Program-made: the position numbers and the translations under genes
Shown here: one piece after another, positions 14,836-64,000 of the stretch
How the letters are laid out: every line of letters starts with the position of its first letter
Position numbering within the stretch: the first letter of the stretch is position 1
Notes under the pieces: model-generated
What the model saw: only the letters and a program-made list of their open reading frames with translations
The model's database searches: none
Told to the model about the DNA's origin: nothing
Source of the DNA: an uncultured Methanosarcinaceae archaeon
Lineage (GTDB): Archaea; Halobacteriota; Methanosarcinia; Methanosarcinales; Methanosarcinaceae
Length of the DNA stretch: 64,000 nucleotides
Direction: 5' to 3'
NCBI GenBank assembly: GCA_963721455.1
Contig: CAVRJG010000044.1
Coordinates: 93,965 to 157,964 of the forward strand

Positions 14836-15059
14836 GGGAGACCAACACCTGCATATACAAGAAAAGTTTACGAAACGTACCCGTCTGACCAATTATATAC
14901 CCGGGTATTTGTGTTTTTCGATCAGGAACCACGTCTCCCTCGATACACCTCATAGAAAATGCATGCTATCGAAAAACCGGCAAAAATATATACAATTCCG
15001 AACCTGGAAATGTCACTACCATTTCTCAGGCCCGGTCTACCATGGGGGCTGGTCAGAGT

Positions 15060-15368
15060 TTAGTTTTTAATTTGCTCAGCAGAGAAACCCTTTTCCATGA
15101 GGACTTCTTTCATGCGGGTCAGATGGTTACCCTGAAGTTCCACAGTATTTCCTTTTACTGTACCCCCGCATGCAAACTTTGATTTAAGATAAGTTGACAG
15201 TTCATGAAGATCGATTTCACTGGCGTCGAAACCTTCTACAACGGTAACTTCTTTTCCGTATCTTCGTCTGTTAACTTTTACAGTAATTCTCTGTTGCTCT
15301 TTTGCAACCTCTTCGCATATGCAAAGTTCTTTTGGAAGCCCGCATACCGGGCACATTCCGCTGCTCAT
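15060..15368 (-). CDS. SUI1/aIF1 (YciH-like) translation initiation factor
   Basis: [12 protein letters not shown]...[12 protein letters not shown]...LQGNH. Confidence 0.93.
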
Positions 15369-15906
15369 TTGTTGGTATATCCTCCAAATTTGTAATCATT
15401 GTTTATGTAATTTACATCTGAAAATAACTGAATAGATATAAAGTACTTATCAATGATGATATTAAAGCCTAATGGTATTTTTCAGGCACTTTATGCTGAA
15501 TTTCAGTTAATAGCCAGAAATTCCCAATCGCATAAAAAGCCAGCCAGGGCTTTGTTGTTTTTCAATTTATTTATATTAAATAGTATATAAGTTTATAGAG
15601 TAAAATTTAATTAAAATTTAATAATAGGGTGTTGATTAAAGAATGCAGACATCAAGCGAAAAAGCTGGAGTTCTAAGGAGTATTCCAGGGGTAAACGCTC
15701 AGGAACTGAGTTTCAAGCCGAAAAGGAAAGACCCGAAAATCTCCATCTTTGCCATAAAGAGCTTTTCTTAGCCAGCAAGAAGTTAGATATATCTTGAATT
15801 CCATCTCTTCCTATAACCTATATAACCACATATATATGCACTTCTATTATATAAATATATTAGTATAAAATTGTTGAATAAAGTCGTGAATATCCGGGGG
15901 CACCTG

Positions 15907-16146
15907 ATGAACGAATTAATAGGTTTTGTAAACGGAAATAATGTAAGGCAAAAAGTGCTCTCCTTACTTTCCTCAAAAGGAGAAATGGAAGGAAAAAGAA
16001 TATCAAAGACCCTGAGAGTAGTATATCCAACCATCGCAAAAACTCTCGAAGAACTTGAGGAGAAAGAATTAATCACAAAAAAGGAAGAAATGTACTCCCT
16101 GACCGAAACCGGAGTAAAAGTGGAAAAAATGATCCAGCAAATCTAA
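15907..16146 (+). CDS. Small winged-helix DNA-binding protein
   Basis: RQKVLSLL...TIAKTLEELEEKELI...YSLTETG. Confidence 0.75.
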   Translation: MNELIGFVNGNNVRQKVLSLLSSKGEMEGKRISKTLRVVYPTIAKTLEELEEKELITKKEEMYSLTETGVKVEKMIQQI

Positions 16147-16493
16147 TTTTTATCCACTTTATTTTAATTAAATCTACTTTTTTTTATCAGGGTCTTTTCC
16201 CAAAACCAATTTTACTCTCAATCAGTAAGAGTCTCAGGACCATCTTTCATGATAATCATGAGAAGAAACTCGACTGATTATTCGTAATAAGAGATTCAGA
16301 GAAGAAATTATGAATTTCTGGATCAGCTCTGACTTATTTCCTTTCATCCAGTTCAATACTACTTTTCATCCAGTTCTACTTTTGTTCACTCAGTATAATA
16401 TTTTTGCAGAAAAAAATGGATAAGGAAAATTCACTTTAGACTTATAACCAAGGAAAATACGTAAAACACGGAAAATTTCTGTCCCATAACTTA

Positions 16494-16737
16494 GTCCTCT
16501 CGAGCGAAGCGAGAAGGACAGCGCACTGCAGAGCCGCAACTCTGCCGAGAAGGACCGCGTACTGTTGCGATTACATCGCAACTCCCAGAAAATCTCCGAT
16601 TTCCTGTGATCCCGAGGCGCAATTCGGGGAGCGAAGCAAAAAGGGCTCCGTCCTCCCGAGACAGGACTCGGGCGGGTTAGAAATATTTATCTAATCCTTG
16701 TCCCTTTATGTCGGCATAGTCTGTTAACGCTACACTG
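16494..16737. repeat. GC-rich multi-hairpin intergenic element (REP/MITE-like or structured RNA)
   Basis: At least 6 stem-loops (e.g. GTTGCGAT-TAC-ATCGCAAC, GCAGAG-CCGCAA-CTCTGC, CCCGAG-ACAGGA-CTCGGG), two GCGAAGC motifs and an internal direct repeat GAGAAGGACnGCGnACTG. Confidence 0.6.
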
Positions 16738-16822
16738 AAAATCCCGAATTTCAAGGAATGATTTATCAGAAAAAACCGAAGCTTCGGCATCCAAAAAAGG
16801 ATTAAGAATCAGAGGCAAGGCA

Positions 16823-18970
16823 ATGTTACCTGAAGAAGACCTTAAGATCATAAAAAAAGAACTCGGGCGAGAGCCCACCCTGGTAGAACAGGGCTGCTTT
16901 TTAAATCTTTGGAGCGAACACTGCTCCTACCGCTCAAGTGCTCCTCTCCTGAAAACCTTCACTACTACGGGCGAAAATGTAATTATCGGCCCCGGGGACG
17001 ATGCTGCAATCATAAAATTCGAAGATGGATACGTACTTGCCATAGGAATGGAAAGCCACAACCACCCTTCATATGTAGACCCTTACAACGGAGCAGCGAC
17101 GGGTATAGGAGGCATCGTGCGGGATATAATTTCCATGGGAGCCCGCCCTATAGCCCTTATGGACCCCCTCTATTTCGGGCCTCTGGACACCCCAAAAAAT
17201 CTATTTCTTTTCGAGCAGATAATTAAGGGAATTGCAGGGTATGGAAATTGCATAGGAGTGCCTGTGGTCAATGGTGAGACTTTCTTTGACAGGAAATACA
17301 GCGGAAATCCGCTTGTAAACGTGGTTGCAGTCGGGCTGTGCCGGGAAGAAACTATCGTGACTGCCCGCTCCCAGAAAGCCGGAAACAAGCTTGTGCTTGC
17401 AGGTTCCAGCACAGGAAAAGACGGACTTGGAGGAGCTTCCTTTGCTTCAAGGGACCTTTCCGAATCAGCCGAAGCCGAAGACCGCCCAAGCGTCCAGGTT
17501 GGAGATCCGTATACCGAAAAACTTGTAATAGAAATGACCCTGGAAGCCATAGATAAAGGCTATGTAAAATCCTGCAAGGACCTTGGAGCTGCCGGTCTTG
17601 GTGGAGCAAGTTCGGAACTGGCTGTAAAGGGAGGGCTTGGAGCCCGTATTATTACAGATGCAGTGCCCCAGCGCGAACCCAATATGAACGCCTATGAAAT
17701 CCTGCTTGCCGAGTCTCAGGAACGCATGCTCTTTGAAGTAGCCCCTGAAAACGTCGATGCCGTACTTGCTCTGGTCTCAAAGTATGACCTTAATGGGGCT
17801 GTAGTTGGGTATCTGACAGACGAGCCAAATTATACAGTTGAATTCAGGGGAGAAATCGTTGCTGACATTCCGATCGGTTTCCTGACCGGAGGAGCCCCGA
17901 CCTGCGAGAAGCCGTCGATAGCCCCTGCTCCCCAGACTGAAGAAGGCAAAAAACCCGAAACTCCGGAAGACCTGAAAGCAGCTTTCCTGAAAGTCCTGTC
18001 CTCCCATAACATTGCCTCAAAAGAATGGATCTACAGACAATACGACCATGAGGTTCAGTTGAGAACGGTTGCCAAACCCGGAGAAGACTCTGGTGTGCTC
18101 AGGATTACCGATAAGAAAGGAATTGCACTCTCCTGTGGCTGCCAGCCAAGAGCTACCCTTCTTGACCCCTACAACGGGGGAAAGACCGCGATCATCGAAA
18201 ACGCCATGAACCTTGCAGTAAAAGGTGCGGAAGGGCTTGCCATTGTAAACTGCCTGAACTTTGGAAACCCCGACCGTCCGGAAATTTACTGGCAGTTTAA
18301 AAACGCCGTACTTGGCCTTGGAGACGCGGCCAGAGAACTCTCAATTCCAGTAGTGGGAGGAAATGTTTCTCTTTATAACGAAAGCGACGAGTTTAAGACT
18401 GCAATTCCCCCAACCCCTTCGATAGGGATGATAGGGAAAGTAGACCTTGAAACTCCCCTTCCCTCGGGTTTCTTTGCAAAATCCGGAGACAGCATTATCC
18501 TGGTAGGAGAAACAACGGCGGACATGGGTGGTTCCGAATATTATGCCTGCTTCGGTGCCCAGAATGCAGGAAAAGTTCCTCCTGTCCCGAAAAATGCCCA
18601 GGGGATAATAAAAGCAGTTATCGAAGCTGTCAAGAGCGGAAAACTCAGTTCGGCACATGACCTTTCCCTTGGAGGGATTGCTGCAGGGCTTGCAAAGATG
18701 TGTAGAGATGCCGGTGCAAAAGTAAACCTGAGTGAAATTGCAGAAATGAAAGCTGATGAACTTTTGTTCTCAGAAGCTCCCGCAAGAGCTCTGCTTGCTA
18801 CAGGCGAGCCCGACGCTGTACTGGAAATCCTCAAAAATGTACCTCACACAGTCATCGGCAAGGTTGAAGGCAATACCCTGGAAATCAAAGGAAACGATTT
18901 TGAGAGTTTTCTTTCCCTGAAAGAGATTTCGGAAGCATATGGCAGCCTTACAAAATTTATGATGGGGTAA
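16823..18970 (+). CDS. purL: Phosphoribosylformylglycinamidine synthase subunit PurL
   Basis: [38 protein letters not shown]. Confidence 0.96.
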
Positions 18971-33356: not shown

Positions 33357-36300
33357 ATGAAACCTACTGCTGAAGACTTAATAAATGGGGAAATAAGCAG
33401 CGTAGGAGTTTACCTATTTAACAGGGTAAAGAATTGTATTTTTGAAAAGGAGCCTATTGAAAAAACGGCCATCAGAAAGGCTGATTTTGAAAAAATAATA
33501 GAAGAGAAAAAAGAATTCGAAGAGTTTCCTGCGATATCTCGAGAGGATATAAAGGCTATTTGTGAGATTTTATACGACTCTAATGACATCGAATCAATAA
33601 TCAAGCAATTGTATGTGTATCAGAGTGGTATGAATAAAAGCCTTGAAGAAATCAAGGAAGATTTTGTATCATTGTTTCCCAGGACAATAAAGCTAGAAAA
33701 TGGAAAAAGAAATCTGGAAACAGGGGAAAGAAGCTCTTTTTTACTTAAGGTATTTGAGGTACTGGACGAAGGAATTCAAACTGCTTTAAACAGAGCAGCA
33801 AATGAAGGATCTTCAGGTGCTTCTAATGCACTCTCCAACCGCCGGCACTTTGATATGAAAAATGAATTAGCAAATGGATTTAAAGATGTTAAAAAGCTTA
33901 TAAGCGATGGCTCCCGACTTCTGAGAGAGCCTATTCCTCTTCCTGGTCAAATGATTGGAGTTCCTTCCCGCCCTCCGAATTATTTACCTCGAAAAGATGA
34001 TCTCAATATAATTAAAGAGCTAATACTAACTGATACTGTCAAACCAGTAGTGATAACATCTGCAAAGCAAATTACCGCGCTTCAAGGTATGGGAGGAATG
34101 GGAAAATCCGTATTAGCTGCAGATTTCGCCCGCACTAGAGAAGTTCAAAAGGCATTTTCTGACGGAATATTCTGGATAACTGTTGGATTAGAAGCATCGG
34201 ACTCTGATGCTAGCGGGAACATGAGACTGATCGGAACAAACCTTGGAGATGACCCTGTAAATTATAGTGGTAAAAAAGAAGCTGAAGCGAGTCTTTCAAA
34301 GATACTTTATGACAAGGTCTGCCTCATTATACTCGATGACATATGGAAAGTCCCACAAGCTACGCCTTTCGTCAATGCTTTAGGTTCACGTTGCAGGCTG
34401 CTTATTACCACGCGAAATGATGATGTTGTTACCTCACTTGGAGCTCAGGAACATAAAGTCGAAATACTCAGCAAACCTGAAGCTTTGAAGCTTCTGGCAA
34501 ATTGGTGCGAACAGAAAGTTGATTCATTGCCATCTGAGGCTGCAGAGGTTTCCAGGGAGTGCGGATACTTACCACTTGCTCTATCCATCTGCGGTGCAAT
34601 GGCTAAAAGTGGGATATCATGGATATATATCCTTGAAGCCTTAAAAGAAGCTGACTTTGAATTCATTGAAGCTCAATTGCCAAATTATCCAGATCCAAAC
34701 GTAGGGAGAGCATTGAAAGTTAGTGTTGACTTTCTCTCACGTGAAGATCCTAACGCCGTACTGCGTTATCAGGAATTAGTGATCTTCCCTGAAGATGAAC
34801 TCGTGCCCGAAGCTACAATTACAACTCTCTGGGAACATACTGGAAATCTGAAAAAACGCAATGTTGAAAAGCTGCTTATTAAACTTAAAGACAGATCTCT
34901 TCTGCGGCTTGACGGTAAAGCCCCTAATCGTCTCATATCTCTGCATGACCTGCAATTAGATTACTTGAGAGCGACAGCGGGTGATTTAACCAGCCTCCAC
35001 AACAAGCTGCTGGAAGCATATGGTAAAGAATGTGGTAATAAGTGGAGTGATGGTCCTGAAGATGGCTATTTCTTCGAACATCTTGCATACCACATGAAAG
35101 AAGCTGGAAGAAAGGAAGAACTTCGCAAGCTCCTTTTAGACTTTGAGTGGATGTATACCAAACTGAAGAAAGTCTTTATTATACAGGACAAAACCGGTAT
35201 GGAAGTGCCCAATGTAAACTCTCTGATTCGTGATTACGATTACCTCCCCGATGATACTGAAATAGGGCTTGTGCAAGGTGCGATTAAGCTCTCATATAAT
35301 GCTATATCAAAAGATAAAACTCAGCTTGCAGGACAGCTTCTTGGACGCCTTCTTTGTTTCCATGAAGGTGGAATACAATCATTGTTAAGCCAAGTATGTG
35401 AGTGCAGAGACGGCGTTAGGTTGCTTCCCAAAACTTCCTCCTTGCAACCACCAGGACAATTATTAATTAGAACTCTTGAAGGGCACAAAAACTCTGTGTA
35501 TGCCGTTGCAGTCACTCCTGATGGAAGGGATGTGATTTCAGGTTCTGAGGACAGAACGCTTAAGATATGGGATCTGAAAACAGGGATGATAAAACCTACT
35601 TTCGGCAGGTCGACGTTTAATTTTTGATAATTTTACTGATGGCGATTTTGAAATAATGCTCCTTACTTGTGTGTAATTGATAGGTTTACATATGACCAAT
35701 TATTAATTTCTCATACTAAACTTTAATGAAAAAATGATTTAGTATTTATATATGCTGTGGGAGTTGAGCCACCTGTTAACCAGCTTTAAACCTAATCTAT
35801 AGTTAGTGAATGTTCAAAAACGGCATCAAGAAAAATATTCTAATTTTTAATGTCGACCTGCCGAAAGTAGGATAAAAACAACACTTAAGGGGCATCATGG
35901 TTGGGTGACCGCAGTTGCAGTCACACCCGATGGAGAGTGTGCTATCTCAGCTTCAGAGGACAGAACGCTTAAGATATGGGATGTGGAAACAGGGATCGTA
36001 AAAAGAACATTAAGAGGACATGAAGGTACGGTGTGGGCGGTTGCAGTTACTCCTAATGGAAAGTATGCAATTTCAGCTTCACATGATAAGACACTTAAGT
36101 TGTGGGATATAGAAACAGGGGTGGTGAAAACAACATTCAGAGGGCATAAAGATTCGGTGTGTGCGGTTTCAGTCACCCCTAATGGAAAGTATGCAATTTC
36201 AGCTTCACTTGATAAGACACTTAAGTTGTGGGATATAGAAACAGGGGTGGTGAAAACAACATTCAGAGGGCATAAAGATTGGGTGATGGAAGTTGCAGTC

Positions 36301-47179: not shown

Positions 47180-47315
47180 GGCAGTGTGCCGTAATTTCTG
47201 TAAAATCACAAATCTCAAGAAGTTATTGGGTTGAAAATTCAATATCAGAAGATCTATTTCCCCCACAGTATACAAAAACTTGACTTAGAATTTACAGCAA
47301 ATTCGCGACACTGCC
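47180..47315. mobile_element. Miniature inverted-repeat element, 136 bp, imperfect ~28-bp TIRs starting GGCAGTGT, possible ATT duplication
   Basis: GGCAGTGTGCCGTAATTTCTGTAAAATC ... GAATTTACAGCAAATTCGCGACACTGCC. Confidence 0.7.
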
Positions 47316-48911: not shown

Positions 48912-49189
48912 GGTTCCGTTGCAAAAAATCTGGCTTTCTTGCAAAATCAGAAAAAACCTTCACAATTAGGAAATTTAATCATTTCATTAGAAAGAAAATG
49001 ACACATAAAGGTAAGAATTATAGTCTCAAATTGCAGAAATATTATTTTTGCACCAGAACCTGTTTTTTGTGGTAAAAGGAAAAGGATACAGAGTCAATCA
49101 TATTTTACAGAACTTTCGGTACACTGCCTTTGATTTTTATTCATTACTTATAGATTTACATATTTTTTTGAATTTTTTGCAACGGAACC
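48912..49189 (+). mobile_element. IS6-family derived miniature element (278 bp)
   Basis: TIRs GGTTCCGTTGCAAAAAA / TTTTTTGCAACGGAACC; its right ~55 bp nearly match the right end of the IS6 remnant at 49777-50461. Confidence 0.8.
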
Positions 49190-51006: not shown

Positions 51007-51778
51007 TCAAAACCCATGCATCAATAAAAAAGGTAAATCCTGTTTTTTGTAATGAAGAAAAGAGAGTTCAGAGCCATTTCGAATTTACAGAACTTTCAGT
51101 ACACTGCCTTAAAATTAAAACTCCTTAGTCTAAGATTAAAAAGCAGGGAGAAAATCTAGGTTTTTTCCTGTATCACTTGCTTTTAGCACTGTGGCTCCTC
51201 ACTTGCGTTGTATTTACAGGTGAGGAAACCAACATTGCCGATTTGTATATAGATTTAGGAGGCATATATTTTTTGTCTGTTCGTATGAAATTTGTCTGTT
51301 CGTATGACATATTACTATAGGACAAACAACTATTTAATACTTTTGTTAATTATCGTGTTATTTAATGTTGATAAATTAAAAATATGTAGCACATATCAAA
51401 AGAATGAATTTCTCTTTGTGAACCGCCTTTCGGAGCTGATACATTTCGAGAGGAAATATGACTCCGACCCTTAGCGTAAGTATCAGAGTCCCGTATCCGG
51501 ACATATATTTTTCAAACAGTATTCTTGTACTGTTTATAACAGCATTCTTGTACTGTTTATTAACAATTTACTAAGGATATTTTTGTGAGAGCACGCAACT
51601 TAACATTGTAAATTAAAGCGCAAGCAGTAAAATGAAGACCTAAAGCATAATATAAAATACAAAAAATAAAGTAAAAACCATAACACATAAAAAAGATAAC
51701 TTCATTAGTTGTAACACTATTTTTAAAAAAGTTAGTTCTCAGCAGTTAGACACGATTTCATACAGGACGTTTTCAAGT

Positions 51779-53903: not shown

Positions 53904-54115
53904 TCAAGGATATTCTTAAGAAACCGTCATCGGAAACGTCGTAATAGACTCAGAATGATTATGTTCGTCCCTGAAAGAGAGTTTCAGGCTTCATTTTAAG
54001 AATATTTTCTATTCCTCGTTTCAGGAATATTCTCCAACATAAAAAAGGATTCCTGTTTGAATTGACAGGAAATAAGAATAGTAGATTTGGGGTAAAAAGA
54101 GGACAGAGGGAAAAA

Positions 54116-54799
54116 ATGCATATACCTGATTCGTTCATACTGCTTGACCAGGCAATAATTTACTGGGTAATTGCCCTTCCATTTATAATAATGTCAATGA
54201 AATGGGCAAAAAATGAACTTGACGAAATGAAAGTACCTATTCTTGCCGCCCTTGCAGCAGGAATCTTTGCAATCCAGGCCATGAACATTCCCATAGGGAT
54301 GGGGACAAGCGGGCACATGGTAGGAGCAACCCTTGTTGCTATCGTCTTCGGAAGCCCCTGGGCTGGAGTCCTTGTGCTTACTTTAGTCCTGATTGTGCAG
54401 GGGTTCGCCTTTGGTGACGGTGGGGTCACTACCATGGGAGCAAATATTCTGAATATGGGTATCATTTCCGGGTTTGTCGGATATTATACCTATGTTGCCC
54501 TTCGCAAGAGCGCAGGCACAAGCACTGCAGCCTTCGGAGGCGCCTGGCTCGGGCTCTTTACCTCGGCAATTGCCTGTGCTGTCCAGATGTGGCTTGCTGG
54601 CACCTTCCCCCTGGTTCCGGGACTTATTACAATGGGAACCTATCACCTGATAATTGGTTTTATCGGAGAAGGGCTGATCACTGCAGTTGTAATTACAGCA
54701 ATTGCAAAATCCCGCCCTGACCTTCTTGAAGACAGTTTTACTACAAGATCAGACAGGATTAAAAAGGAGACACATGCATGCGTGGAAAATCAAACATGA
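54116..54799 (+). CDS. cbiM: ECF S component CbiM/NikM
   Basis: N-terminal MHIPD metal-binding motif, TSGH, GDGG. Confidence 0.92.
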   Translation: MHIPDSFILLDQAIIYWVIALPFIIMSMKWAKNELDEMKVPILAALAAGIFAIQAMNIPIGMGTSGHMVGATLVAIVFGSPWAGVLVLTLVLIVQGFAFGDGGVTTMGANILNMGIISGFVGYYTYVALRKSAGTSTAAFGGAWLGLFTSAIACAVQMWLAGTFPLVPGLITMGTYHLIIGFIGEGLITAVVITAIAKSRPDLLEDSFTTRSDRIKKETHACVENQT

Positions 54800-55083
54800 A
54801 ATTCTTTTACGCCGGAATTGTGATTGCGCTTTTGCTCGCGGTTCTAGCCCCATTCCTTGCATCTCCAGACCCCGACGGGCTTGAAAGTGCTGCTGGAGGG
54901 ATAGTTGAAGAATCGAAAATGGCCCAAATTGAAGAATCTGAACCAGTAGTTGGGTCCCCAATGCCTGACTATTCAATTGAAGGCTTGGGGAAGAGCGGAG
55001 AAGTCCTGGCGATTGCAGTGGGAACACTTACAGTACTGACAATCAGTTTAGGTCTTGGGAAAGTGTTCAATAAAAAAGCCTGA
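54778..55083 (+). CDS. PDGLE domain protein (NikN-like)
   Basis: ASPDPDGLE...PMPDY. Start may be 54796. Confidence 0.88.
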   Translation: MRGKSNMKFFYAGIVIALLLAVLAPFLASPDPDGLESAAGGIVEESKMAQIEESEPVVGSPMPDYSIEGLGKSGEVLAIAVGTLTVLTISLGLGKVFNKKA

Positions 55084-55127
55084 AGTTCTGGATTAAAAAT
55101 TTCCATTGTCTCCCAGGAAAATTGAGG

Positions 55128-55832
55128 TTAAGGATTTATAAATATTATACTCGAAGGGCAGAGCTGGTTCACAACGCAGGATGGACATTTTGGTTTTCTT
55201 GCCTGGCAGACTTCCCTCCCATGATAAATCAGGGTCATGGAGATTGAATCAAGGTCTTCCTTTCGAGCAAGAGATAGAATGTCCTGTTCAATTTTGTCAG
55301 GGTCGGAGTTTTTCGTAAATCCCAGCCTTCTTGAAACCCTTTTTACATGCGTGTCCACAGCGATGCCCTCAATTATCCCAAATGCCCTGGCAAGCACTAT
55401 ATTAGCTGTTTTTCTCCCGACGCCTGGCAAACTAACCAGTTCTTCCATAGCGTCCGGGACTTCACCATTGTATTTCTCAACAATCAGTTGCGCAGCAGCT
55501 TTGATATTCTTTGCTTTGTTTTTGTAAAAGCCTGTGGAATAGACATCGATCTCAAGTTCCCTGAGGTCTGCGTTTGCATAGTCTTCCGCAGTTCTGTACT
55601 TTTTGAACAGCTTTTCAGTCACTCTGTTAATCTGGACATCGGTTGACTGGGCTGAAAGAACGGTTGCCACAAGAAGTTCAAGGGGACTACTGTAGTTAAG
55701 AGAAGGTTTTGCGTTCGGATACTCTTTTTTTAGAAGAGCCCAGATCCGGTCAAAATTGTGCCTGTTGTCAGGGAGATCATATTCATAAAGAGAATCTTGA
55801 GTATCCGATTTTTTGGGCTTTTTTTCAGGCAT
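55128..55832 (-). CDS. nth: Endonuclease III
   Basis: LSAQSTD, LPGVGRKTAN HhH, VDTHV, CxxxxxxCxxCxxxxxC. Confidence 0.95.
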   Translation of the reverse strand: MPEKKPKKSDTQDSLYEYDLPDNRHNFDRIWALLKKEYPNAKPSLNYSSPLELLVATVLSAQSTDVQINRVTEKLFKKYRTAEDYANADLRELEIDVYSTGFYKNKAKNIKAAAQLIVEKYNGEVPDAMEELVSLPGVGRKTANIVLARAFGIIEGIAVDTHVKRVSRRLGFTKNSDPDKIEQDILSLARKEDLDSISMTLIYHGREVCQARKPKCPSCVVNQLCPSSIIFINP

Positions 55833-55968
55833 GAGTAACTCCAGATTTTCGGGTTTGTTTCCGGTTTCAGCGGAAGCGTACTTTCTTTGCGGAATCTGTA
55901 TTACGTTTCCCGGAGTAAGGCATCAGAAGGTAAGTTTGAGTGCCTGCGTCCGGGTCTTGCAGGAAGTT

Positions 55969-57321
55969 TTACAGCATATAAGGAATATCCGAACATATAG
56001 TAGGATAGGTAAAGATTACTTTTTTTATGTCCGATACACTGAGGTTAAGCCTTATTGCCATAGCAAAAATATTGATAGCTTCTTCAGCATTCGGGCCCAG
56101 GATATGAGCTCCCATTATGCGGCCACTTGCCTCGTCTATAATTACCTTTGAAGCTGCAAATTCGATGCCGACTCTCCGTGTTGTCTTCCATTTGCTTCTG
56201 TCCCGGAAAATCACCTTATATTTATCGCTGTCTTTTGCTGCACTGATTCCCACAGAAGCCAGGACAGGAATGGTAAAGACTGCACTCGGGATGCCGGTAT
56301 AATCGGCTTCTGCGTCATCTCCATCCAGAATATTAGCTGCGGCAATCTGGCCCTGGAGTGTTGCTACCGGAGTTAGTTTCATGCCTTCGGCGACACAGTC
56401 TCCTCCAGCGTAAATATGTGGATTTGAAGTCCGCATGTGTTTATCAACTATAATACCTTTCTTATCAGCCTTAACGTCTGCATTCTCAAGTTTCAGGTCT
56501 TCGATATCAGGGACTCTCCCGGCCCCGTTAAAAACCATGCCCGCATGAAAAGTCCGGGTTTCGGACTGAGCCCCGATTCTGAATTCGGTCCTGACCAGAA
56601 AGCCGTCATTTTCTTTTTCGACAGCTTCCACTTGGTTGTTTGTAAGGATTTTAATGCCTGCTGTTTCTGAAGCTTTTACAAGCAGATCTACCATATCGGG
56701 ATCGAAAGGTCCGAGAGGTTTTTCGCTCCTGTGCAGGATTAAGACCTCGGATCCTGCTCTTCTCGCAATGTGTGCAAACTCGAAAGAGATGTAGCCACCC
56801 CCGATGAAAATGATCTTTTGAGGGAGCTTTTTAGTTTCCATGAAACCCTCATTCGTTGTAAGGTATTCCTCGCCGGGTATGCCCAGTTTCCGGGGCTTTG
56901 ATCCCGTCGCAATGAAGATATATTCCCCTTTGAGTATATCCTCTCCGACAATTACGGTTTTCTCACCCGCAAAGTGGGCTATTCCGTGATACATATCAAT
57001 CCCCAAATCTGCGAGCATTTTTTCAGTTTCACGGGGATAGTCCTCAGTAAACGTTCTCTTGAACTCGATAAGTGAGGGCCAGTCGACCTCTAGAGGGTTC
57101 TCCGTCCCTGTGCCTCTACCTATCAGCCGATTATTCAGGTCTGTAGCTTCAGACGCACTTGCAAGTACCTTTTTTGGGTCGCAGCCTCTAAGAGGGCAGG
57201 TACCCCCATACTCCCTTGAGTCGATAATGGCGAATTTCAATCTTGATGACCGTGCCCTGCCTGCAAGAGTCCTGCCTGCTGTACCTGTCCCGATAATTAT
57301 AATATCGTATTTCTTTTCCAT
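55969..57321 (-). CDS. Pyridine nucleotide-disulfide oxidoreductase (glutathione/dihydrolipoamide reductase family)
   Basis: GTGTAG, GGTCPLRGCDPKK redox dithiol, GGGYIS, YPT C-terminus. Confidence 0.88.
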   Translation of the reverse strand: MEKKYDIIIIGTGTAGRTLAGRARSSRLKFAIIDSREYGGTCPLRGCDPKKVLASASEATDLNNRLIGRGTGTENPLEVDWPSLIEFKRTFTEDYPRETEKMLADLGIDMYHGIAHFAGEKTVIVGEDILKGEYIFIATGSKPRKLGIPGEEYLTTNEGFMETKKLPQKIIFIGGGYISFEFAHIARRAGSEVLILHRSEKPLGPFDPDMVDLLVKASETAGIKILTNNQVEAVEKENDGFLVRTEFRIGAQSETRTFHAGMVFNGAGRVPDIEDLKLENADVKADKKGIIVDKHMRTSNPHIYAGGDCVAEGMKLTPVATLQGQIAAANILDGDDAEADYTGIPSAVFTIPVLASVGISAAKDSDKYKVIFRDRSKWKTTRRVGIEFAASKVIIDEASGRIMGAHILGPNAEEAINIFAMAIRLNLSVSDIKKVIFTYPTICSDIPYML

Positions 57322-57684
57322 CAAATTCCCCAACCCTTTGATATGTTATCTTCGGAAAAAATAAATCAAAGAAGTAATCCTGAAAAAGCAGTTTCTCTAT
57401 GCATCCCCTATTCATTCTGTTTCCAAAGAATAAGTATTTCACGTGAACACTTTTCCTGAAAGAAGTCAATAATAGTATACTTCCAGAAAGTTATGCATAC
57501 AAAGTACCAAAAACTTAAAGAACCACATATCCAGAAGAGTTGTTAAAGCATGCTTAAGAGAATACTGGATTTTCAGAATTGAAGTTCGGTTTTCCCGGAA
57601 AGAGAAGTTTCTTTTTAATATAATAATGTGTAAACCATAAGTTTTATAGCTAATAATTTTGAAACCAAGTATATTGGTGATTTT

Positions 57685-59301
57685 TTGGTAAAAAGGGCAC
57701 TGCTCAGCGTCTCAGATAAGACAGGAATTGCAGAATTCGCACGCGGGCTTGAATCACTTGGCGTGAAGATAGTCTCAACAGGCGGAACAGCGAAAATTCT
57801 TCGCGACGCCGGCATAGAAGTTACCGATGTCTCGGAAGTTACGGGCTGTCCGGAGATGATGGGAGGAAGGGTCAAGACTCTCCATCCGAGAATTCATGGA
57901 GGGCTCTTATGCCTGCGGGAAAGCAATGAACAGATGGAGGAGGCTGCAAAAGAAGAGATCTCCCTCATTGATATGGTGGCTGTAAATCTCTATCCGTTTG
58001 AAGTAACTGTTTCAAAAGAGGGCGTGGAACTTGAGGAAGCCATTGAAAATATAGATATAGGAGGCCCAACTCTCCTTCGCTCGGCAGCCAAGAACTACCG
58101 TTCGGTAACAGTGCTCTCCGACCCATCGGATTACGGGCACGTCCTGAAAGAGCTGCGCTCAAGCGGAATAATTTCGAATTCAACCCGAGCTGCCCTTGCA
58201 GTCAAGGCTTTCAGGCATACTGCTGATTACGATGCAGCCATCGATATTTACCTTAGCAAGACTCTGCTCGGAGAAGAAGCACTTCGCCTGAAGTTTACTG
58301 ACGGCGTGAAACTCCGCTATGGAGAAAACTGGCATCAGAAAGCCTATTTTTATAAAGACCCTAAAATAGAAGGCCCTAGCCTGGCAAAAGCCGCCCAGCT
58401 GCATGGGAAGGAACTTTCCTATAATAACTATGTGGATGCCGACAATGCCCTTCAGACGGTAAAAGAACTCGGAAATGCCTCCCCTGCAGTAGCAATCGTA
58501 AAACATAACAATCCATGCGGGCTTGCTACCGGAAGCACACTCCTGCAGGCTCTTAGGGCTGCCTGGGACGGAGACCCGATTTCGGCTTACGGAAGCATAA
58601 TCTGCACAAATGAGATCTTTGACCTTGCAGCTGCTACTTTTCTGAATGGAAAATTTGTGGAGATTATTCTTGCTCCTGACTTCAAGCCCGATGCCCTTGA
58701 ATACCTGAAAAATAAAAGTGAGAACCTGCGACTCCTGAAACTGCCTGAGCTCAGAGAAATTTTCGGAACAGAATATACATATAAGTATATAATCGGAGGC
58801 ATGCTCAAGCAAAGCCGCGACATCGGAATCTACGAGAAATGGGAGTCGGTCACAGACGCCCCCTATCCTGAAGACAAACGCTCTATCTCGGAATTCTGCC
58901 TGAAAGCCTGTAAAGCAACCAAATCCAATGCAGTGATCCTTGCTCATGAGTACGAGCCAGGCTTTTTCATGATACTGGCTATGGGTGCAGGGCAGCCGAA
59001 TAGGGTTGACTCGATCCGCAAACTAGCAGCCACAAAGGCTGTCGAAAATCTGAGGACAATTTACGAAAGAGAACATCCTGGTGTTTCCTTTGAAGATTAT
59101 TGCCAGAAAGTTATGTCAGAATGCGTAATGGCATCGGATGCTTTCTTCCCCTTCGATGACAGCATAATTTATGCCGCCGAAAATAATATCCGCTACATAG
59201 TCTCCCCAGGAGGGTCAATCAGGGACGGCGAGGTTATTGCCACTGCAAACCGGCTCGGAGTTGCCATGGTCTTCACAGGCATGCGCCACTTCCTGCATTG
59301 A
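57685..59301 (+). CDS. purH: Bifunctional AICAR transformylase / IMP cyclohydrolase
   Basis: ALLSVSDK, GRVKTLHP, IDIGGP, LRYGEN, SDAFFPF, RHFLH. Confidence 0.96.
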   Translation: MVKRALLSVSDKTGIAEFARGLESLGVKIVSTGGTAKILRDAGIEVTDVSEVTGCPEMMGGRVKTLHPRIHGGLLCLRESNEQMEEAAKEEISLIDMVAVNLYPFEVTVSKEGVELEEAIENIDIGGPTLLRSAAKNYRSVTVLSDPSDYGHVLKELRSSGIISNSTRAALAVKAFRHTADYDAAIDIYLSKTLLGEEALRLKFTDGVKLRYGENWHQKAYFYKDPKIEGPSLAKAAQLHGKELSYNNYVDADNALQTVKELGNASPAVAIVKHNNPCGLATGSTLLQALRAAWDGDPISAYGSIICTNEIFDLAAATFLNGKFVEIILAPDFKPDALEYLKNKSENLRLLKLPELREIFGTEYTYKYIIGGMLKQSRDIGIYEKWESVTDAPYPEDKRSISEFCLKACKATKSNAVILAHEYEPGFFMILAMGAGQPNRVDSIRKLAATKAVENLRTIYEREHPGVSFEDYCQKVMSECVMASDAFFPFDDSIIYAAENNIRYIVSPGGSIRDGEVIATANRLGVAMVFTGMRHFLH

Positions 59302-59657
59302 GAAAACCGATAAAATAACGAATGAACCGAAACCGGAATCCGAAACCGGAATCCTAATCCCTGCCGTCCAAGGGCAGGGAAAAATTAAATTTACAAACTT
59401 GATTTCAAGAACTTTTAACGCTCAATTGACAATAGCTTTGAGTATCAGAGGAAACCGATATTTTAATATTTTTCAAGGAAATTCAGGATATAAAGAGATC
59501 AGATCTATCTGGACCACATATTAAATTTAACGTTTTTATCAATAAATTTGGATGTAATACTTCGTTCAGTTTTCGAGAACTCACTCAATTTTATTAGATG
59601 TATCACGTTATATATCACGTTATATAGCCAGCTTTTTTTAAACATGTTTACATATTA

Positions 59658-60646
59658 CCGACCTTCCGCAGGTGCGACAAGAAGCTATACTATGAATTGC
59701 ACCATTCGCTACCTCTTCCATTTGAGGTAATCCTACTGTGACATGCATAAATGGTAACATTTGTGTGTGAAGCTCACAGGACACTATCGAGAAATCAAGG
59801 AACCTGACTTTGGTAATCGGTTAGGATACGAATACTATGAAGAACATAAAGTGAACCATCGTAAGAATCGTGAAGTGGAATAAGCGAAAGCAGGCTGATA
59901 CGCTTAACCAAAAGGTACAGAATCAGGCTGTAATGGGTCTGCGGACATTATGGCAAATGGACAAATGATTCTCGGTTTATAGATGGCTTCTAAGGTATTC
60001 ACATTATTCGTAGTATGGAACTTGGTAAGCCCTAAATGCTCCCATTATGGGTAGGACTCCCGCGAGGGATAACGATGGCATTGAGGGTAGAGGATTCAGT
60101 AAAAAGCGAATGCCAATCTGTAATGGATTGGATAGAGGTTCAAACTTTGCCTCAATCCGAAAGGATGCAGACTTACTGATGGTGTTTTCTTGTGTGAATG
60201 GAAACAAACCTACAAATGTAAGATACTCAACGACACCAATAGGTGAGAGGCTTACAGACAATTATGTTAGTGGGCTGTTATCCGGAACACAAAATCAGTT
60301 ATGCAAATAACTGGTGCCTGATACAGAAAGGGTTTGAAAACACTCGAGCCGTATGAAGGGAAACTTTCAAGTACGGTTCCTAGGGGAGAAAGGAGGAGTA
60401 ATCCTCCCTACTTACCCGACATGTCCTCAAGAAAATAACATTTCTCTTGCTATCATTTTTGGATATTTGCTCTAAAATTTGCAATTATTACCTCAACTGA
60501 AGCTTCCTGAAATGTAAGTTAGAAGCTTTCAATGAAAGTACAAGATTGAAAAGTGTAAGACATTTCAAAAAAACATGTTTGAATAAGCAGGGAAATTTTC
60601 AGAAAAACGATAGTAGAAAAAATTGTGAAAATTGAACGGACATCTG
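59658..60646. mobile_element. Probable MITE (~250 bp without the intron): left TIR CCGACCTTCCGCAG|ATGTCC split by the intron, right TIR cut off after GGACATCTG
   Basis: The joined exons give a 20-mer whose inner 9 bp are complementary to GGACATCTG at 60638-60646; 12/16 identity with the TIR of the 35595 MITE. Confidence 0.55.
59672..60420 (+). ncRNA. ORF-less group II intron (IIB/CL-like), 749 nt
   Basis: 5' GTGCGACAAGAAG; DI closing helix GAAGCTAT/ATGGCTTC; EBS1 CTGCGGA (59939-59945) pairs with IBS1 TCCGCAG (59665-59671); canonical 34-nt DV GAGCCGTATGAAGGGAAACTTTCAAGTACGGTTC (60346-60379); DVI and 3' AC; no RT ORF. Confidence 0.93.
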
Positions 60647-61345
60647 GGGACGGCTTCGGCACGGTGTGGGACAACCTCACCGACCCGTCGGCGCTCCACG
60701 CCTTCCGCATCACGCTCACCGTCGCGTTCTGGGCGGTGCTCGGCAACACGATCTTCGGCCTCGACCGCCTCGATCCTGCTCGTGCGCTACCGCTGGCCCG
60801 GCAAGCGGGCCTTCAGCACGCTGATCGACCTCCCGTTCGCGGTGTCGCCGGTCGTCGTCGGCCTCGCGCTCATCCTCGTCTACGGCCCGAACGCGAACGT
60901 CGGTGGTTGGCTCGCCGACGTCGGCGTCTCGGTGATCTTCTCGCTGCCCGGCATGGTGATCGCCACGATGTTCGTGTCGCTCCCACTCGTGGTGCGCGAC
61001 GTCGTCCCGGTGCTCGAGGAGATCGGCGACGAGCAGGAGCAGGCCGCGTGGACGCTCGGTGCCTCGAAGCCGCAGACGTTCCGGCGCGTCACGCTGCCGG
61101 CGATCCGGTGGGCGCTCGCGTACGGCGTCGTGCTGACGCTCGCCCGTTGCCTCGGCGAGTACGGCGCGGTGCTCGTCGTCTCCGGGAACATCCAGGACAA
61201 GACCCAGACCGCGCCCCTCTACGTGGGGACCGAGTTCCAGAACTTCAACACCCAGGGCGCCTACACCGTCGCGTTCGCGCTGGCGATGATCGCGATCGTC
61301 GCGCTCCTGCTGCTCAACCTCGTGCGGCCGAAAGAGGAGATCTGA
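60647..61345 (+). CDS. cysW: Sulfate ABC transporter permease CysW (5'-truncated, frameshift near 60770; bacterial segment)
   Basis: [34 protein letters not shown]. Confidence 0.82.
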
Positions 61346-62308
61346 TGAGCATCTCGGTGCGGAACGTCGGGAAGCGCTTCGGCGACTTCGTCGCACTCGA
61401 CGACGTGTCGGTCGACATCCCGACCGGATCGCTCACCGCGCTCCTCGGACCGAGCGGTGGCGGCAAGACGACGCTGTTGCGGGTGATCGCCGGGCTCGAG
61501 ACCCCCGACACGGGCGTCGTCGAGATCGCGGGCAACGACTCCACCTCCCTCCCGCCGCAGCGTCGCAACGTCGGCTTCGTGTTCCAGCACTACGCCGCGT
61601 TCAAGCACATGACGGTGTTCAAGAACGTCGCGTTCGGCCTCTCGATCCGCAAGCGCCCCAAGGCGCGAGATCCGCGCCCGGGTGACGGAGCTGCTCGAGC
61701 TCGTGCACCTCGAGCACCTCGCCGACCGGTACCCGTCGCAGCTGTCGGGCGGACAACGACAGCGGATGGCACTCGCGCGCGCGCTCGCGGTCGAGCCCGA
61801 GGTCCTGCTGCTCGACGAGCCGTTCGGCGCGCTCGACGCCCAGGTGCGCAAGGAGCTGCGGACCTGGCTGCGCCGCCTGCACGACGAGGTCCACGTGACC
61901 ACCGCGTTCGTGACCCACGACCAGGAGGAGGCGATGGACGTCGCCGACCTGATCGTGGTGATCGCCAAGGGCAAGGTCGAGCAGTCGGGCACGCCCGACC
62001 AGCTCTACGACGAGCCGGCGAACGAGTTCGTCATGAGCTTCCTCGGACCGGTCACCCGCCTCCAGGGTGCGCTCGTGCGGCCGCACGATCTCGAGCTCGT
62101 TCCCGTCGCGACTCCCGATGCGGTGGCGGGCACCGTCGTCCGGGTCGTGCGACTCGGCTTCGAGGTGCGCGCCGACGTCCTGACCGAGGCCGGCGAGGTG
62201 TGGGTGCAGCTGACCCGCGGTCAGTCGGATCGACTCGCACTCGAACCCGGCACCGCGGTCGGCATACGCGTCGCCGGACCGACCCTCGCCGAGTCCACGT
62301 CGGCCTGA
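61345..62308 (+). CDS. cysA: Sulfate ABC transporter ATPase CysA (frameshift near 61665; bacterial segment)
   Basis: [14 protein letters not shown], then LSGGQRQR and [10 protein letters not shown] in a shifted frame. Confidence 0.85.
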
Positions 62309-62352
62309 CGGCTGCGTCGAGCATGAACCCGGTCCGGAACTCACTCCCCGGG

Positions 62353-62782
62353 GTGATCGTCCCGGCTCGGCTCGACTACGCGCTCCGTGCGCTCCTCTCG
62401 CTCGCCGGGGCGCAATCGGAACGAACCAAGGTCGACGTGATCGCCGACGAACACGACCTCTCGCGCAAGTTCCTCGCCCACACCCTCACGACCCTCCGCG
62501 ACGCGGGGATGGTCGTCACCCGGAGGGGCGCGAGCGGGGGCTATTGGCTCGCGCGCCGCCGCGGACGAGATCTCCGTCGTCGAGGTCTTCGACGCGATCT
62601 CGGCTGCCGCCTCCTCTGGCGCTCGGGCGGAGCGCAGGGCCAACCCGGCCGCCGCGCGGAGCGCGACGGCCTGGAGCCGGATCGAACATGCCATGCGGGC
62701 GGGACTCGGCGCGCTCACGATCGCCGATCTGGCGACGCCGGTCACGCCCGGTCGCGCTCCTCGACGGTCACGGTCTTCATGA
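62353..62782 (+). CDS. Rrf2 family transcriptional regulator (frameshift near 62557; bacterial segment)
   Basis: DYALRALL...[12 protein letters not shown], then [13 protein letters not shown]...LTIADL in a shifted frame. Confidence 0.75.
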
Positions 62783-63218
62783 CGTCGCCGACCTGGATCC
62801 CGGTGGCGACATCCATTCCGTCGACGACGAAGCCGAACAGGCTGTAGTCCTTCGAGAGCTTGCGGGTGCAGTCGTCGATGGTGATGAAGAACTGCGAGCC
62901 GTTGGTGTTCGGACCCGCGTTCGCCATCGCGACGGCGCCGAGGGTGTACTCGCCCTTCACCTCTTCGTCGCGGAACTTGTACCCGGCGTCGCCGGTGCCG
63001 GTGCCCTGGGGGCACCCGCCCTGGATCACGAAGTCGGGGACCACGCGGTGGAAGGTCAGGCCGTCGTAGAAGCCTTGCCGCGCGAGGCCGACGAAGTTGT
63101 TGACGGTGTTCGCCGCGAGCTGCGGGTCGAGATCCATCACGATGTCGCCCTTGTCGGTCGTGATCGTGGTCCGGTACATCTTGGAGCCGTCGATCTGGTA
63201 CTCGGGGGGTTGCGCCAC
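62742..63218 (-). CDS. Cyclophilin-type peptidyl-prolyl isomerase (bacterial segment)
   Basis: [35 protein letters not shown]. Confidence 0.92.
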
Positions 63219-63260
63219 GGTTCGGTCCTGCTTTCTCGGCGTGTCGTTCGTTCGGCTGGG

Positions 63261-63569
63261 TCAGGGTCGGCTGGAGGAGTTCGAGGCGGCGACCGCCTCG
63301 GCGAGCAGCCCGCGGACCTGGTCCGAGAGGGGGCTGTCGGGGACGAGCGTGATGTAGCGCTGGAACTGCGGAATCGCGCCGGCCGCATCCGACTTCCCAC
63401 GGAACAGCGCCATCCCCTTGAAGAAGTGCGCGTCAGGATAGGTCTCGTCGGCGGCGAGCGCGGCATCGATCCGCGGGATCGCGTCGTCGACCCTGCCCGG
63501 CGAGGTAGAGCAGCCAGCCGCTGTACGCCTGCGCCTCGGTGTCGGCCGGGTCGAGCCTGCGTCACGGTG
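63261..63569 (-). CDS. C-terminal part of a TPR protein (frameshifted, 5' part missing)
   Basis: AYSGWLLYLAG|RVDDAIPRIDAALAADETYPDAHFFKGMALF. Confidence 0.6.
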   Translation of the reverse strand, partial: HRDAGSTRPTPRRRRTAAGCSTSPGRVDDAIPRIDAALAADETYPDAHFFKGMALFRGKSDAAGAIPQFQRYITLVPDSPLSDQVRGLLAEAVAASNSSSRP

Positions 63570-63893
63570 GACGCCGGCGCCGAGGATCAGCCGTCCGTTC
63601 GACAGGTTGTGCAGGCTGGCAAGCTCCTTCGCCAACGGCAGCGGATGGCGCATCGGCAGCACCAGCACGGTGGTGCCCAGCCGCACCCGCTCGGTCACCG
63701 CCGCGACGTAGGTCAGCGTCACCACCGGGTCGTAGAACAGCGGCGAGCGGGGGAACTCCTTGCGCGGCACGATGATGTGCTCGCTGACCCACACATCGTC
63801 GAAGCCCAGCGCTTCGGCGCGCATCGCGTGGCGGCGGATCAGCGCCGGGGTCGCCTGCTCGCCGGCATGCGGCAGATGGATGCCAAGCTTCAT
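63570..63893 (-). CDS. N-terminal part of an LLM-class (F420-dependent-type) oxidoreductase, truncated
   Basis: MKLGIHLP, AEALGFDDVWVSEH, LGTTVLVLPMRHP, GRLILGAGV, then an abrupt break. Confidence 0.8.
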
Positions 63894-64000
63894 GTTGTCC
63901 CCTCCGTGTTCGGGTCGCACAATGCGCCCAACCGAAACTGGAGGAAACCGCACCATGACCTCGCGCTGGGAGTCATCCGCACCGATCCGCTATCCGGACA

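Follow-up and report, generated by a model that had tools for sequence, protein, structure and literature searches.

A group II intron lacking an open reading frame in the terminal inverted repeat of an IS1634-family miniature transposon from an uncultured Methanosarcinaceae archaeon

We analyzed a 64,000-nucleotide stretch of DNA from an uncultured Methanosarcinaceae archaeon (assembly GCA_963721455.1, contig CAVRJG010000044.1; hereafter, the window). It contains a 749-nt group II intron that lacks an open reading frame (ORF) for a reverse transcriptase (RT), and that lies within the left terminal inverted repeat (TIR) of a miniature inverted-repeat transposable element (MITE) of approximately 250 bp. 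Very probably, the window thus holds a doubly non-autonomous nested element, which was formed when the intron retrohomed into the TIR of a MITE of the IS1634 family. A preceding sequence-only reading of the window had proposed that this intron targets the terminal repeats of insertion sequences (ISs) and MITEs. Intron-free MITE copies and the flanking sequences shared by intron copies, both described subsequently, support that proposal.

The intron extends from 59672 (GTGCGAC) to 60420 (CCCGAC) on the plus strand, as do its parts and the segments of the MITE given below. Its termini, GTGCG at 59672-59676 and GAC ending at 60420, agree with the group II consensus GUGYG and AY. Two Rfam models recognize it: RF02012 (group-II-D1D4-7) matches part of domain I at 59710-59859 (63.5 bits; gathering threshold, 34; E-value, 1e-10), and RF00029 matches domains V and VI at 60344-60420 (63.5 bits; gathering threshold, 40). 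The fold of domains V and VI has an energy of -33.2 kcal/mol (z score, -3.79), and none of 200 shuffled sequences folded as well. Exon-binding site 1 (EBS1; CTGCGGA, 59939-59945) occupies the loop of a small hairpin and is complementary at seven of seven positions to intron-binding site 1 (IBS1; TCCGCAG, 59665-59671), an exact match to the 7 nt before the intron that had been reported earlier and that we confirmed on the letters of the window. EBS2 (AAGTGG, 59873-59878) forms four of six pairs with the IBS2 of the window (CGACCT, 59659-59664) and six of six in most sister copies. Neither the EBS1 region nor the EBS2 region folds with a significant z score (for the EBS1 hairpin alone, -1.0).

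The intron interrupts no gene; a 538-aa ORF is found approximately 350 nt upstream. It is classified as an ORF-less derivative, because its 749 nt include no RT frame and RT-encoding relatives are present in the same genome. When the intron is aligned to a 2143-nt relative, whose ORF occupies its positions 516-2009, the alignment runs to approximately intron position 526-588 and restarts at 639. This alignment identifies a 5'-terminal remnant of the lost RT frame within domain IV (60179-60259; limits approximate). A Pfam search of the two short ORFs in the intron (87 and 85 aa) detected no family, and the MITE is only approximately 250 bp long, so the earlier claim that neither partner encodes a protein holds for the window copy.

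The 5' exon consists of the outer 14 nt of the left TIR (59658-59671), so that the repeat is split between its nucleotides 14 and 15. On the other side of the intron, 60421-60650 contains the rest of the MITE: the sequence ATGTCC (60421-60426), the body, and an incomplete right TIR (60638-60650). Over these 230 nt, identity to five other full-length loci in the genome is 94-98%, and all five matches begin exactly at the first base 3' of the intron. At four of the five loci, the intron is absent, the 14-nt 5' exon is joined directly to ATGTCC, and an inverted sequence of approximately 20 nt closes the element approximately 250 bp downstream; the 6-bp duplications around these copies are AAACAT, TTCTAA, CTCGCT and ATGAAA. 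The 20-mer that the sequence-only reading had derived by joining the exons is therefore found undivided, together with its inverted partner, and the joined exons form the terminus of a repeated element with four complete, intron-free copies, each bounded by a short target-site duplication.

The fifth homologue, on contig C71, carries the intron at the same site, has a complete right TIR, and is flanked on both sides by ATATTA. The same 6-mer precedes the window copy as its left target-site duplication (59652-59657), and its right counterpart was lost at a chimeric join. The host element thus exhibits the properties of a MITE, namely a length of approximately 250 bp, no gene, TIRs of approximately 20 nt, 6-bp duplications and multiple copies, with a right end that is incomplete in the window. 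Because the sequence flanking the intron is that of a MITE and not of another intron, the window copy is not a twintron. An inverted-repeat scan of 59600-60700 did not report the TIR, as expected for a repeat whose left arm is divided by the intron and whose right arm is incomplete.

The right TIR is truncated because the contig is mis-joined to foreign DNA. After 60650, G+C content jumps from approximately 42% to 69%, and the remainder of the window (60651-64000), which lies outside the element and contains ABC-transporter permease and ATPase domains, is an assembly chimera. In contigs from two metagenome runs, position 60650 is followed by AAGTGGG, which is the natural outer end of the TIR. 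The sequence GGACATCTG, which recurs at 60638-60646, is the inner part of the genuine right TIR, and the outer 7 nt were lost by the mis-join. Accordingly, the inverted repeat that had been noticed approximately 220 bp beyond the intron is real, and it is incomplete in the window.

Blocks of 60-74% G+C are found in seven contigs of this assembly, of which the archaeal DNA has approximately 42% G+C: C8 (1-14 kb), C17 (58-60 kb), C19 (133-143 kb), C33 (0-21 kb), C44 (0-20 kb), and the starts of C48 and C54. They are located at contig ends and, in C19, once internally; C19 also has a 54-nt string on both strands, approximately 8 kb apart. These blocks look like chimeric joins to a contaminating organism of high G+C content, and findings that span such boundaries in this assembly are suspect.

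Four of the 24 public sequencing runs that are listed as sharing approximately 0.3 of the words of the window were compared with the window. We rejected the idea that the shared words come from the high-G+C tail, because the shared part is the intron and the MITE. No joint across 59672-60420 appeared in these four runs, which does not imply that splicing is absent. The unique flank at 59300-59657 is not covered in the four runs, and we draw no inference from them regarding an empty allele or the habitat.

The genome contains 203 occurrences of the 14-nt TIR pattern, among which there are 43 adjacent inverted pairs. Most of these pairs (32) have lengths of 230-278 bp, and in 24 of these 32 the 6-bp flanks are identical. 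An autonomous member of 1719 bp (C30:7276-8994) has TIRs of the same 14-nt pattern that are similar, not identical, to those of the MITE. Its 542-aa transposase contains DUF4277 and DDE_Tnp_1 domains and scores 390 bits with the NCBIfam model for IS1634 (NF033559; cutoff, 100). The window MITE belongs to the IS1634 family, and the TIRs and the duplications suggest that it would be mobilized by this transposase. Another MITE in the window (35595-35871; 277 bp) is free of introns, has 21-nt IS1634-type TIRs of the CGGCAG variant, and is bounded by ATAAAA on both sides; 12 further 277-bp copies of it are present in the genome. Its resemblance to the 20-mer at the intron had been pointed out before, and its first 16 nt indeed match at 12 of 16 positions. 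Published work records IS1634 elements in Methanosarcina and reports that PCNA is bound by a peptide derived from one of these transposases (PMC4549789).

A blastn search of the same genome with the window intron detected 13 full-length ORF-less copies, seven with 100% identity, one with 99.87%, and the others with 97.1, 95.9, 91.3, 90.7 and 80.4%, as well as a 166-nt fragment, three longer relatives and one weak match. The eight near-identical copies (99.9-100%, seven of them at loci other than that of the window) reside at different loci, and all are located directly 3' of the same TIR motif. Ten of the 13 copies follow the 8-mer TTCCGCAG, two follow TTCGGCAG, and one follows TTCTGTA. More distal flanks vary between copies, and similarity between the loci of the eight near-identical copies ends a few nucleotides to either side of the site. 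Because the 8-mer precedes 10 of 13 copies despite these differing distal flanks, the association is far beyond chance. The flanks of the copies are related; according to the sequence-only reading, unrelated flanks would have refuted its proposal. When all 19 intron 5' ends in the genome are considered, 16 are at IS1634-type repeats, two are at IS256-type repeats, and one is elsewhere.

For seven of the 10 copies that follow TTCCGCAG, either a partner TIR or a homologue free of introns allowed placement in an element. Both the window copy and its C71 twin reside in the MITE of approximately 250 bp, and the C54b intron occupies the opposite end of a MITE of similar type that is flanked by TTTAAT on each side. 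The C59 and C52b introns are in elements of approximately 130 bp, the C54a intron is in a 243-bp type of element with an intron-free homologue at C51:3311-3553, and the C52a intron is at the terminus of an element of 1.7 kb whose ORFs encode DUF4277 and DDE domains. A scan for 24-mer partners found no partner TIR for the C54a, C30, C13, C8, C25 and C12 introns; C25 and C12 were placed by the similarity of their 3' exons to the 1719-bp IS.

Some copies have peculiarities of their own. The two 91% copies, at C25:9190-9940 and C12:48373-49124, have flanks in common and begin with ATTCG instead of GTGCG; they are probably splicing defective. Their host is an IS1634-type element, which they occupy at its end and into which a 179-bp MITE has also inserted. 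At C59:1250-2017, a 384-bp tandem duplication comprises 218 nt of flank and the first 166 nt of the intron, so that the TIR-intron junction occurs twice in a row.

The intron's guide sequences match these repeats. EBS2 (AAGTGG) complements the CCACTT that is found at positions -13 to -8 in the flanks of most copies. To relate pairing to occupancy, we graded TIR ends of the CCGCAG type by their pairing with EBS2, allowing G.U pairs. Nine of the 12 ends without a mismatch are occupied by an intron. Ends with one mismatch are occupied in none of seven cases, and ends with two mismatches in two of 10; these two among the 17 mismatched ends are the window copy and its C71 twin. The window copy is therefore a real but atypical case, namely, an insertion into a weakly matched variant that departs from the consensus.

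Guides and targets also change together, as read in part from an alignment of four rows. In the RT-encoding intron, EBS1 is CTGCCGA and EBS2 is AAGCAG, and the corresponding flanks are TCGGCAG and CTGCTT; relative to the window intron, EBS1 shows one compensating change and EBS2 shows two. Likewise, EBS1 is CTGCCGA in the two ORF-less copies of 91% identity, which are located after TCGGCAG. Relatives in two other genomes have EBS2 AAGTCA and the flank TGACTT-TCCGCAG. For a broader assessment, 71 intron 5' ends were collected, of which 36 were usable, representing 32 distinct intron-target combinations. EBS2 pairs at six of six positions with its own flank in 16 of the 32 combinations, as compared with 60 of 982 swapped pairings, and EBS1 pairs at seven of seven positions in 17 of 32, as compared with 93 of 884; because the sequences are related, these counts are descriptive and are not probabilities.

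Three relatives of the intron are 2143 nt long, are at least 99.7% identical to one another, and encode an intact and identical 497-aa RT/maturase with RVT_N, RVT_1 and GIIM domains. A domain search detected no nuclease domain in this protein. Among solved structures, its best match is 6me0_C (E-value, 1.4e-151), an entry that we take to be the ribonucleoprotein of a Thermosynechococcus elongatus intron. One of the RT-encoding introns is in the TIR of a 260-bp MITE, with the duplication TTTTAT intact on both sides. Approximately 13 further TIR ends with the exact motif of the RT-encoding intron are free. The sequence-only reading had suggested searching for a cognate RT-encoding intron with the EBS1 of the window intron. 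None was found in the present genome: the nearest EBS1 is the CTGCCGA of the 2143-nt introns, which is found in the CGGCAG variant of the TIR.

A fourth RT-encoding intron (C35, approximately 15040-17147, minus strand) has an intact RT with 57% amino acid identity. We considered it as a further case of TIR homing and rejected it, because it is inside another repeat of at least 780 bp and not at the terminus. That repeat has at least nine intron-free copies, so this host is again mobile or repeated DNA.

A second intron lineage is found after a different, 24-nt motif, and includes the 80% copy on C49 and a fragment on C50, together with eight 5' ends from four further genomes. This motif is the TIR of an abundant element of approximately 1.2 kb with 8-9-bp duplications, whose transposase scores 271 bits with the NCBIfam model for IS256 (cutoff, 150). 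Here, the distance from the tip to the insertion site is 23 nt in C49 and 24 nt in the relatives, and EBS1 has shifted by one nucleotide to match. The window itself has four IS256-type TIRs (47180-47203, 47292-47315, 49105-49128 and 51085-51108), all of which are free of introns and located in a stretch of 30-36% G+C.

Relatives of the intron are present in 27 of the 41 genomes of the order that were searched, a count that includes the genome of the window. Among 40 5' ends of relatives, eight follow the IS1634-type motif (two with a variant end), eight follow the IS256-type motif, and the remainder follow other sequences. We also searched a collection of species-representative genomes for exact matches to a 19-mer that spans the TIR-intron junction. 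It is found at 24 loci, of which 17 are in Methanosarcina or Methanosarcinaceae; the other seven are bacterial, with unrelated flanks, and are taken to be chance matches. Contigs of four metagenome studies contain a near-identical intron joined to several TIR variants, and also intron-free MITE ends. The pattern is thus wider than first proposed, because it involves two IS families, both RT-encoding and ORF-less introns, and many genomes of the genus.

Several relatives in other genomes have unusual contexts. The 5' ends of L088 (G011:C10) and L093 (G015:C1) are nested inside other introns, one in domain V and the other 23 nt from the 5' end of its host intron. In genome G008, the 5' ends of L098 and L099 are preceded by the reverse complement of the IS1634-type repeat, so that the intron starts just outside the transposon end; the contigs stop approximately 125 nt past these 5' ends.

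We propose the following mechanism. The intron RNA would pair with the outermost 13-14 nt of the TIR, with EBS2 contacting positions -13 to -8 and EBS1 contacting positions -7 to -1; position +1 is mostly A. It would then reverse splice between TIR positions 14 and 15, into the strand bearing the outer repeat, and would be copied into DNA. The intron has lost its RT gene, and splicing and mobilization would presumably be provided in trans by the RT/maturase of the 2143-nt relative. Because this candidate protein has no endonuclease domain, we propose that copying is primed from replication, by analogy with RmInt1 (PMC1802570, PMC8914252). The target occurs once per strand in each element, so that one end would always be on the favored template. 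The outer TIR is the most conserved stretch of IS1634-type elements and occurs once per strand per element, and it would therefore offer the intron many harmless targets. We infer that the intron is currently mobile. Finally, a TIR that has been split in this manner is plausibly useless for transposition.

A number of observations weigh against this proposal, or against parts of it. With regard to the helper, none of the RT-encoding introns of this genome shares EBS1 and EBS2 with the window intron. Over most of domains I-III, the RNA of the candidate helper shares 84-97% identity with the ORF-less intron (74% in one 39-nt block), but in domains V and VI the identity is only approximately 70%, which makes the identity of the helper uncertain; the 2143-nt intron may be neither the parent of the ORF-less intron nor its helper. 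With regard to targets, no insertion in the set is paired more poorly than that of the window, whose EBS2 match is four in six. Moreover, three of the 10 copies that follow TTCCGCAG (C30, C13 and C8) are recognized by the 14-mer only, with no partner TIR within 4 kb, and target duplications are absent at C52a, C52b, C59 and C19. Related genomes are not independent samples. Lastly, the assembly is chimeric, and repeats may be collapsed in it. The window and C71 share 6.5 kb (window 54089-60650 and C71:26851-33409, minus strand) at 98.9% identity, and yet their introns differ by 2.9% (20 substitutions and two indels), whereas the flanks differ by approximately 0.2% over the last 4 kb. The differences are mostly in the first 460 nt of the intron, and both variants are present in metagenome contigs. 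Gene conversion, two independent homing events, or threading of a consensus by the assembler are possible explanations.

A rival idea is that the introns are old, immobile relics whose near-identity was created by gene conversion or by consensus threading during assembly. The demonstrable chimerism of the assembly speaks for this idea, as does the fact that the window intron equals a multi-copy consensus, from which its C71 twin deviates at 20 positions and two indels within flanks that have diverged approximately 10-fold less. Nonetheless, we regard it as unlikely. The flanks are unique to each copy and the junctions are exact, three copies retain intact RT ORFs, and four separate metagenome studies show a near-identical intron on several TIR variants. 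In addition, occupancy tracks complementarity to EBS2, which is not expected to result from either collapse or conversion. A different account, to which we assign very little probability, is that the intron entered one MITE a single time and the composite then spread by transposition, in which case the flanks would be shared by descent of the carrier. Long flanks are indeed common to two pairs of copies, C44/C71 and C25/C12. However, these pairs have kilobases in common and so represent segmental duplicates or loci that were assembled twice, not transposed copies, and the eight introns of 99.9-100% identity are found in unlike elements: MITEs of approximately 250 and 130 bp, the 243-bp type, and a 1.7-kb IS. 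No intron-bearing element is found at two loci with different flanks, and the present data contradict this account.

Alternatively, retrohoming into TIRs might be maintained by selection at the level of the host, if insertions that cripple the ends of ISs and MITEs act as a brake on transposon expansion. Consistent with such a domesticated control, the TIR is split at a distance of 14 nt from the tip, evidence of later transposition is seen for none of the intron-bearing elements, and the TIRs of two unrelated IS families are targeted. On the other hand, only approximately 16 of the 203 TIR-like ends are occupied, approximately 13 well-matched sites of the RT-encoding intron are still free, and the copies are too young to have transposed. 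Moreover, the explanation that TIRs are safe harbors for the intron requires no host-level selection. We therefore consider domestication improbable, somewhat more so than an origin of the copies as relics or artefacts. Retrohoming of the ORF-less intron into the TIR of the MITE, by contrast, accounts for the window copy and its sister copies, and it remains the reading that we favor strongly.

Homing of group II introns into ISs is already established in bacteria. RmInt1 of Sinorhizobium meliloti homes into ISRm2011-2, and its ORF-deleted derivatives are mobile when the intron-encoded protein (IEP) is supplied (PMC1802570). The present introns resemble RmInt1 in having an RT/maturase without an endonuclease domain and a multi-copy IS as natural homing site (PMC1802570). 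Unlike the bacterial RmInt1, they have an archaeal host. Their target is the noncoding TIR, and MITEs without genes serve as hosts as well. Their RT, which is closest to the 6me0 type among solved structures, appears to belong to another class.

The TeI3/TeI4 introns of T. elongatus provide another parallel, since related IEPs mobilize ORF-less derivatives in trans and their EBS sequences have diverged, which gives access to new sites (PMC2882425). These introns insert at a conserved site in ISEL1, an IS200-family element, or in other introns (PMC2882425). ORF-less members, diverged EBS sequences and an insertion-element target are thus common to both systems (PMC2882425). Unlike in T. elongatus, the elements entered here are of the TIR-bearing IS1634 and IS256 families, insertion is within the repeat, and most of the hosts are MITEs. 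To our knowledge, elements of the IS200 family do not have TIRs.

E.c.I4 and other enterobacterial introns home into transposase genes of the IS3 family, in recent bursts of near-identical copies and with partial to full saturation of sites (PMC3522654). Their targets are set positions in transposase genes, whereas the targets reported here are transposon termini. Group IIC-attC introns insert at DNA motifs such as terminators and attC sites, not at a homing site of 20-35 bp (PMC4424553). They are comparable to the present introns in that they are directed to the site at which another mobile element recombines, in their case an imperfect inverted repeat that the recombinase of that element recognizes (PMC4424553). 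The present introns differ in that they use full sequence pairing by EBS1 and EBS2. Within Methanosarcina, introns have been recorded as nesting in one another (PMC4424553). The introns of the present report belong to the same genus and intron group as the nested introns of Methanosarcina acetivorans, and nesting is also observed among their relatives; unlike those introns, the window copy has no surrounding intron. In 2003, Dai and Zimmerly reportedly described these M. acetivorans introns, both ORF-less and RT-encoding, as homing into the ORFs of other introns.

The introns reported here insert site-specifically into multi-copy ISs, as in the bacterial cases. The site is not within a transposase gene, and is located 14 nt (IS1634) or 23-24 nt (IS256) from the tip in the noncoding TIR. 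The differences from known cases are the archaeal host, the TIR itself as target, the involvement of two IS families, and the visible covariation of guide and target. We found no description of homing into TIRs or MITEs in the literature; earlier papers on Methanosarcina introns could mention IS ends. The findings add archaea to the bacteria in which homing into ISs is established, and gene-less MITEs to the transposase genes that serve as targets. They also explain why the introns of this genus are located almost exclusively outside genes, and the 13-14-nt rules predict where such introns will occur. The rules likewise account for the breaks of assemblies of these genomes at such sites; several contigs of one species stop 40 nt from the junction.

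In these introns, a retroelement with a programmable RNA guide is aimed at the stretch of a transposon that is least free to change, namely, the end that is recognized by the transposase. They provide a natural series of retargeted EBS-IBS pairs with known targets, and a simple system for asking whether one selfish element restrains another. A more speculative possibility, which we consider doubtful at present, is that Methanosarcina introns are specialized hyperparasites of DNA transposons. Under this hypothesis, EBS1 and EBS2 would track variants of the termini in at least two unrelated IS families, insertions would disable transposon ends by splitting the repeat required by the transposase and drive an arms race, and pairs of partners that lack any protein, as in the window, would be its end state. 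If so, an arms race between intron guides and transposon ends could be read from sequence, in a manner comparable to the evolution of spacers and protospacers.

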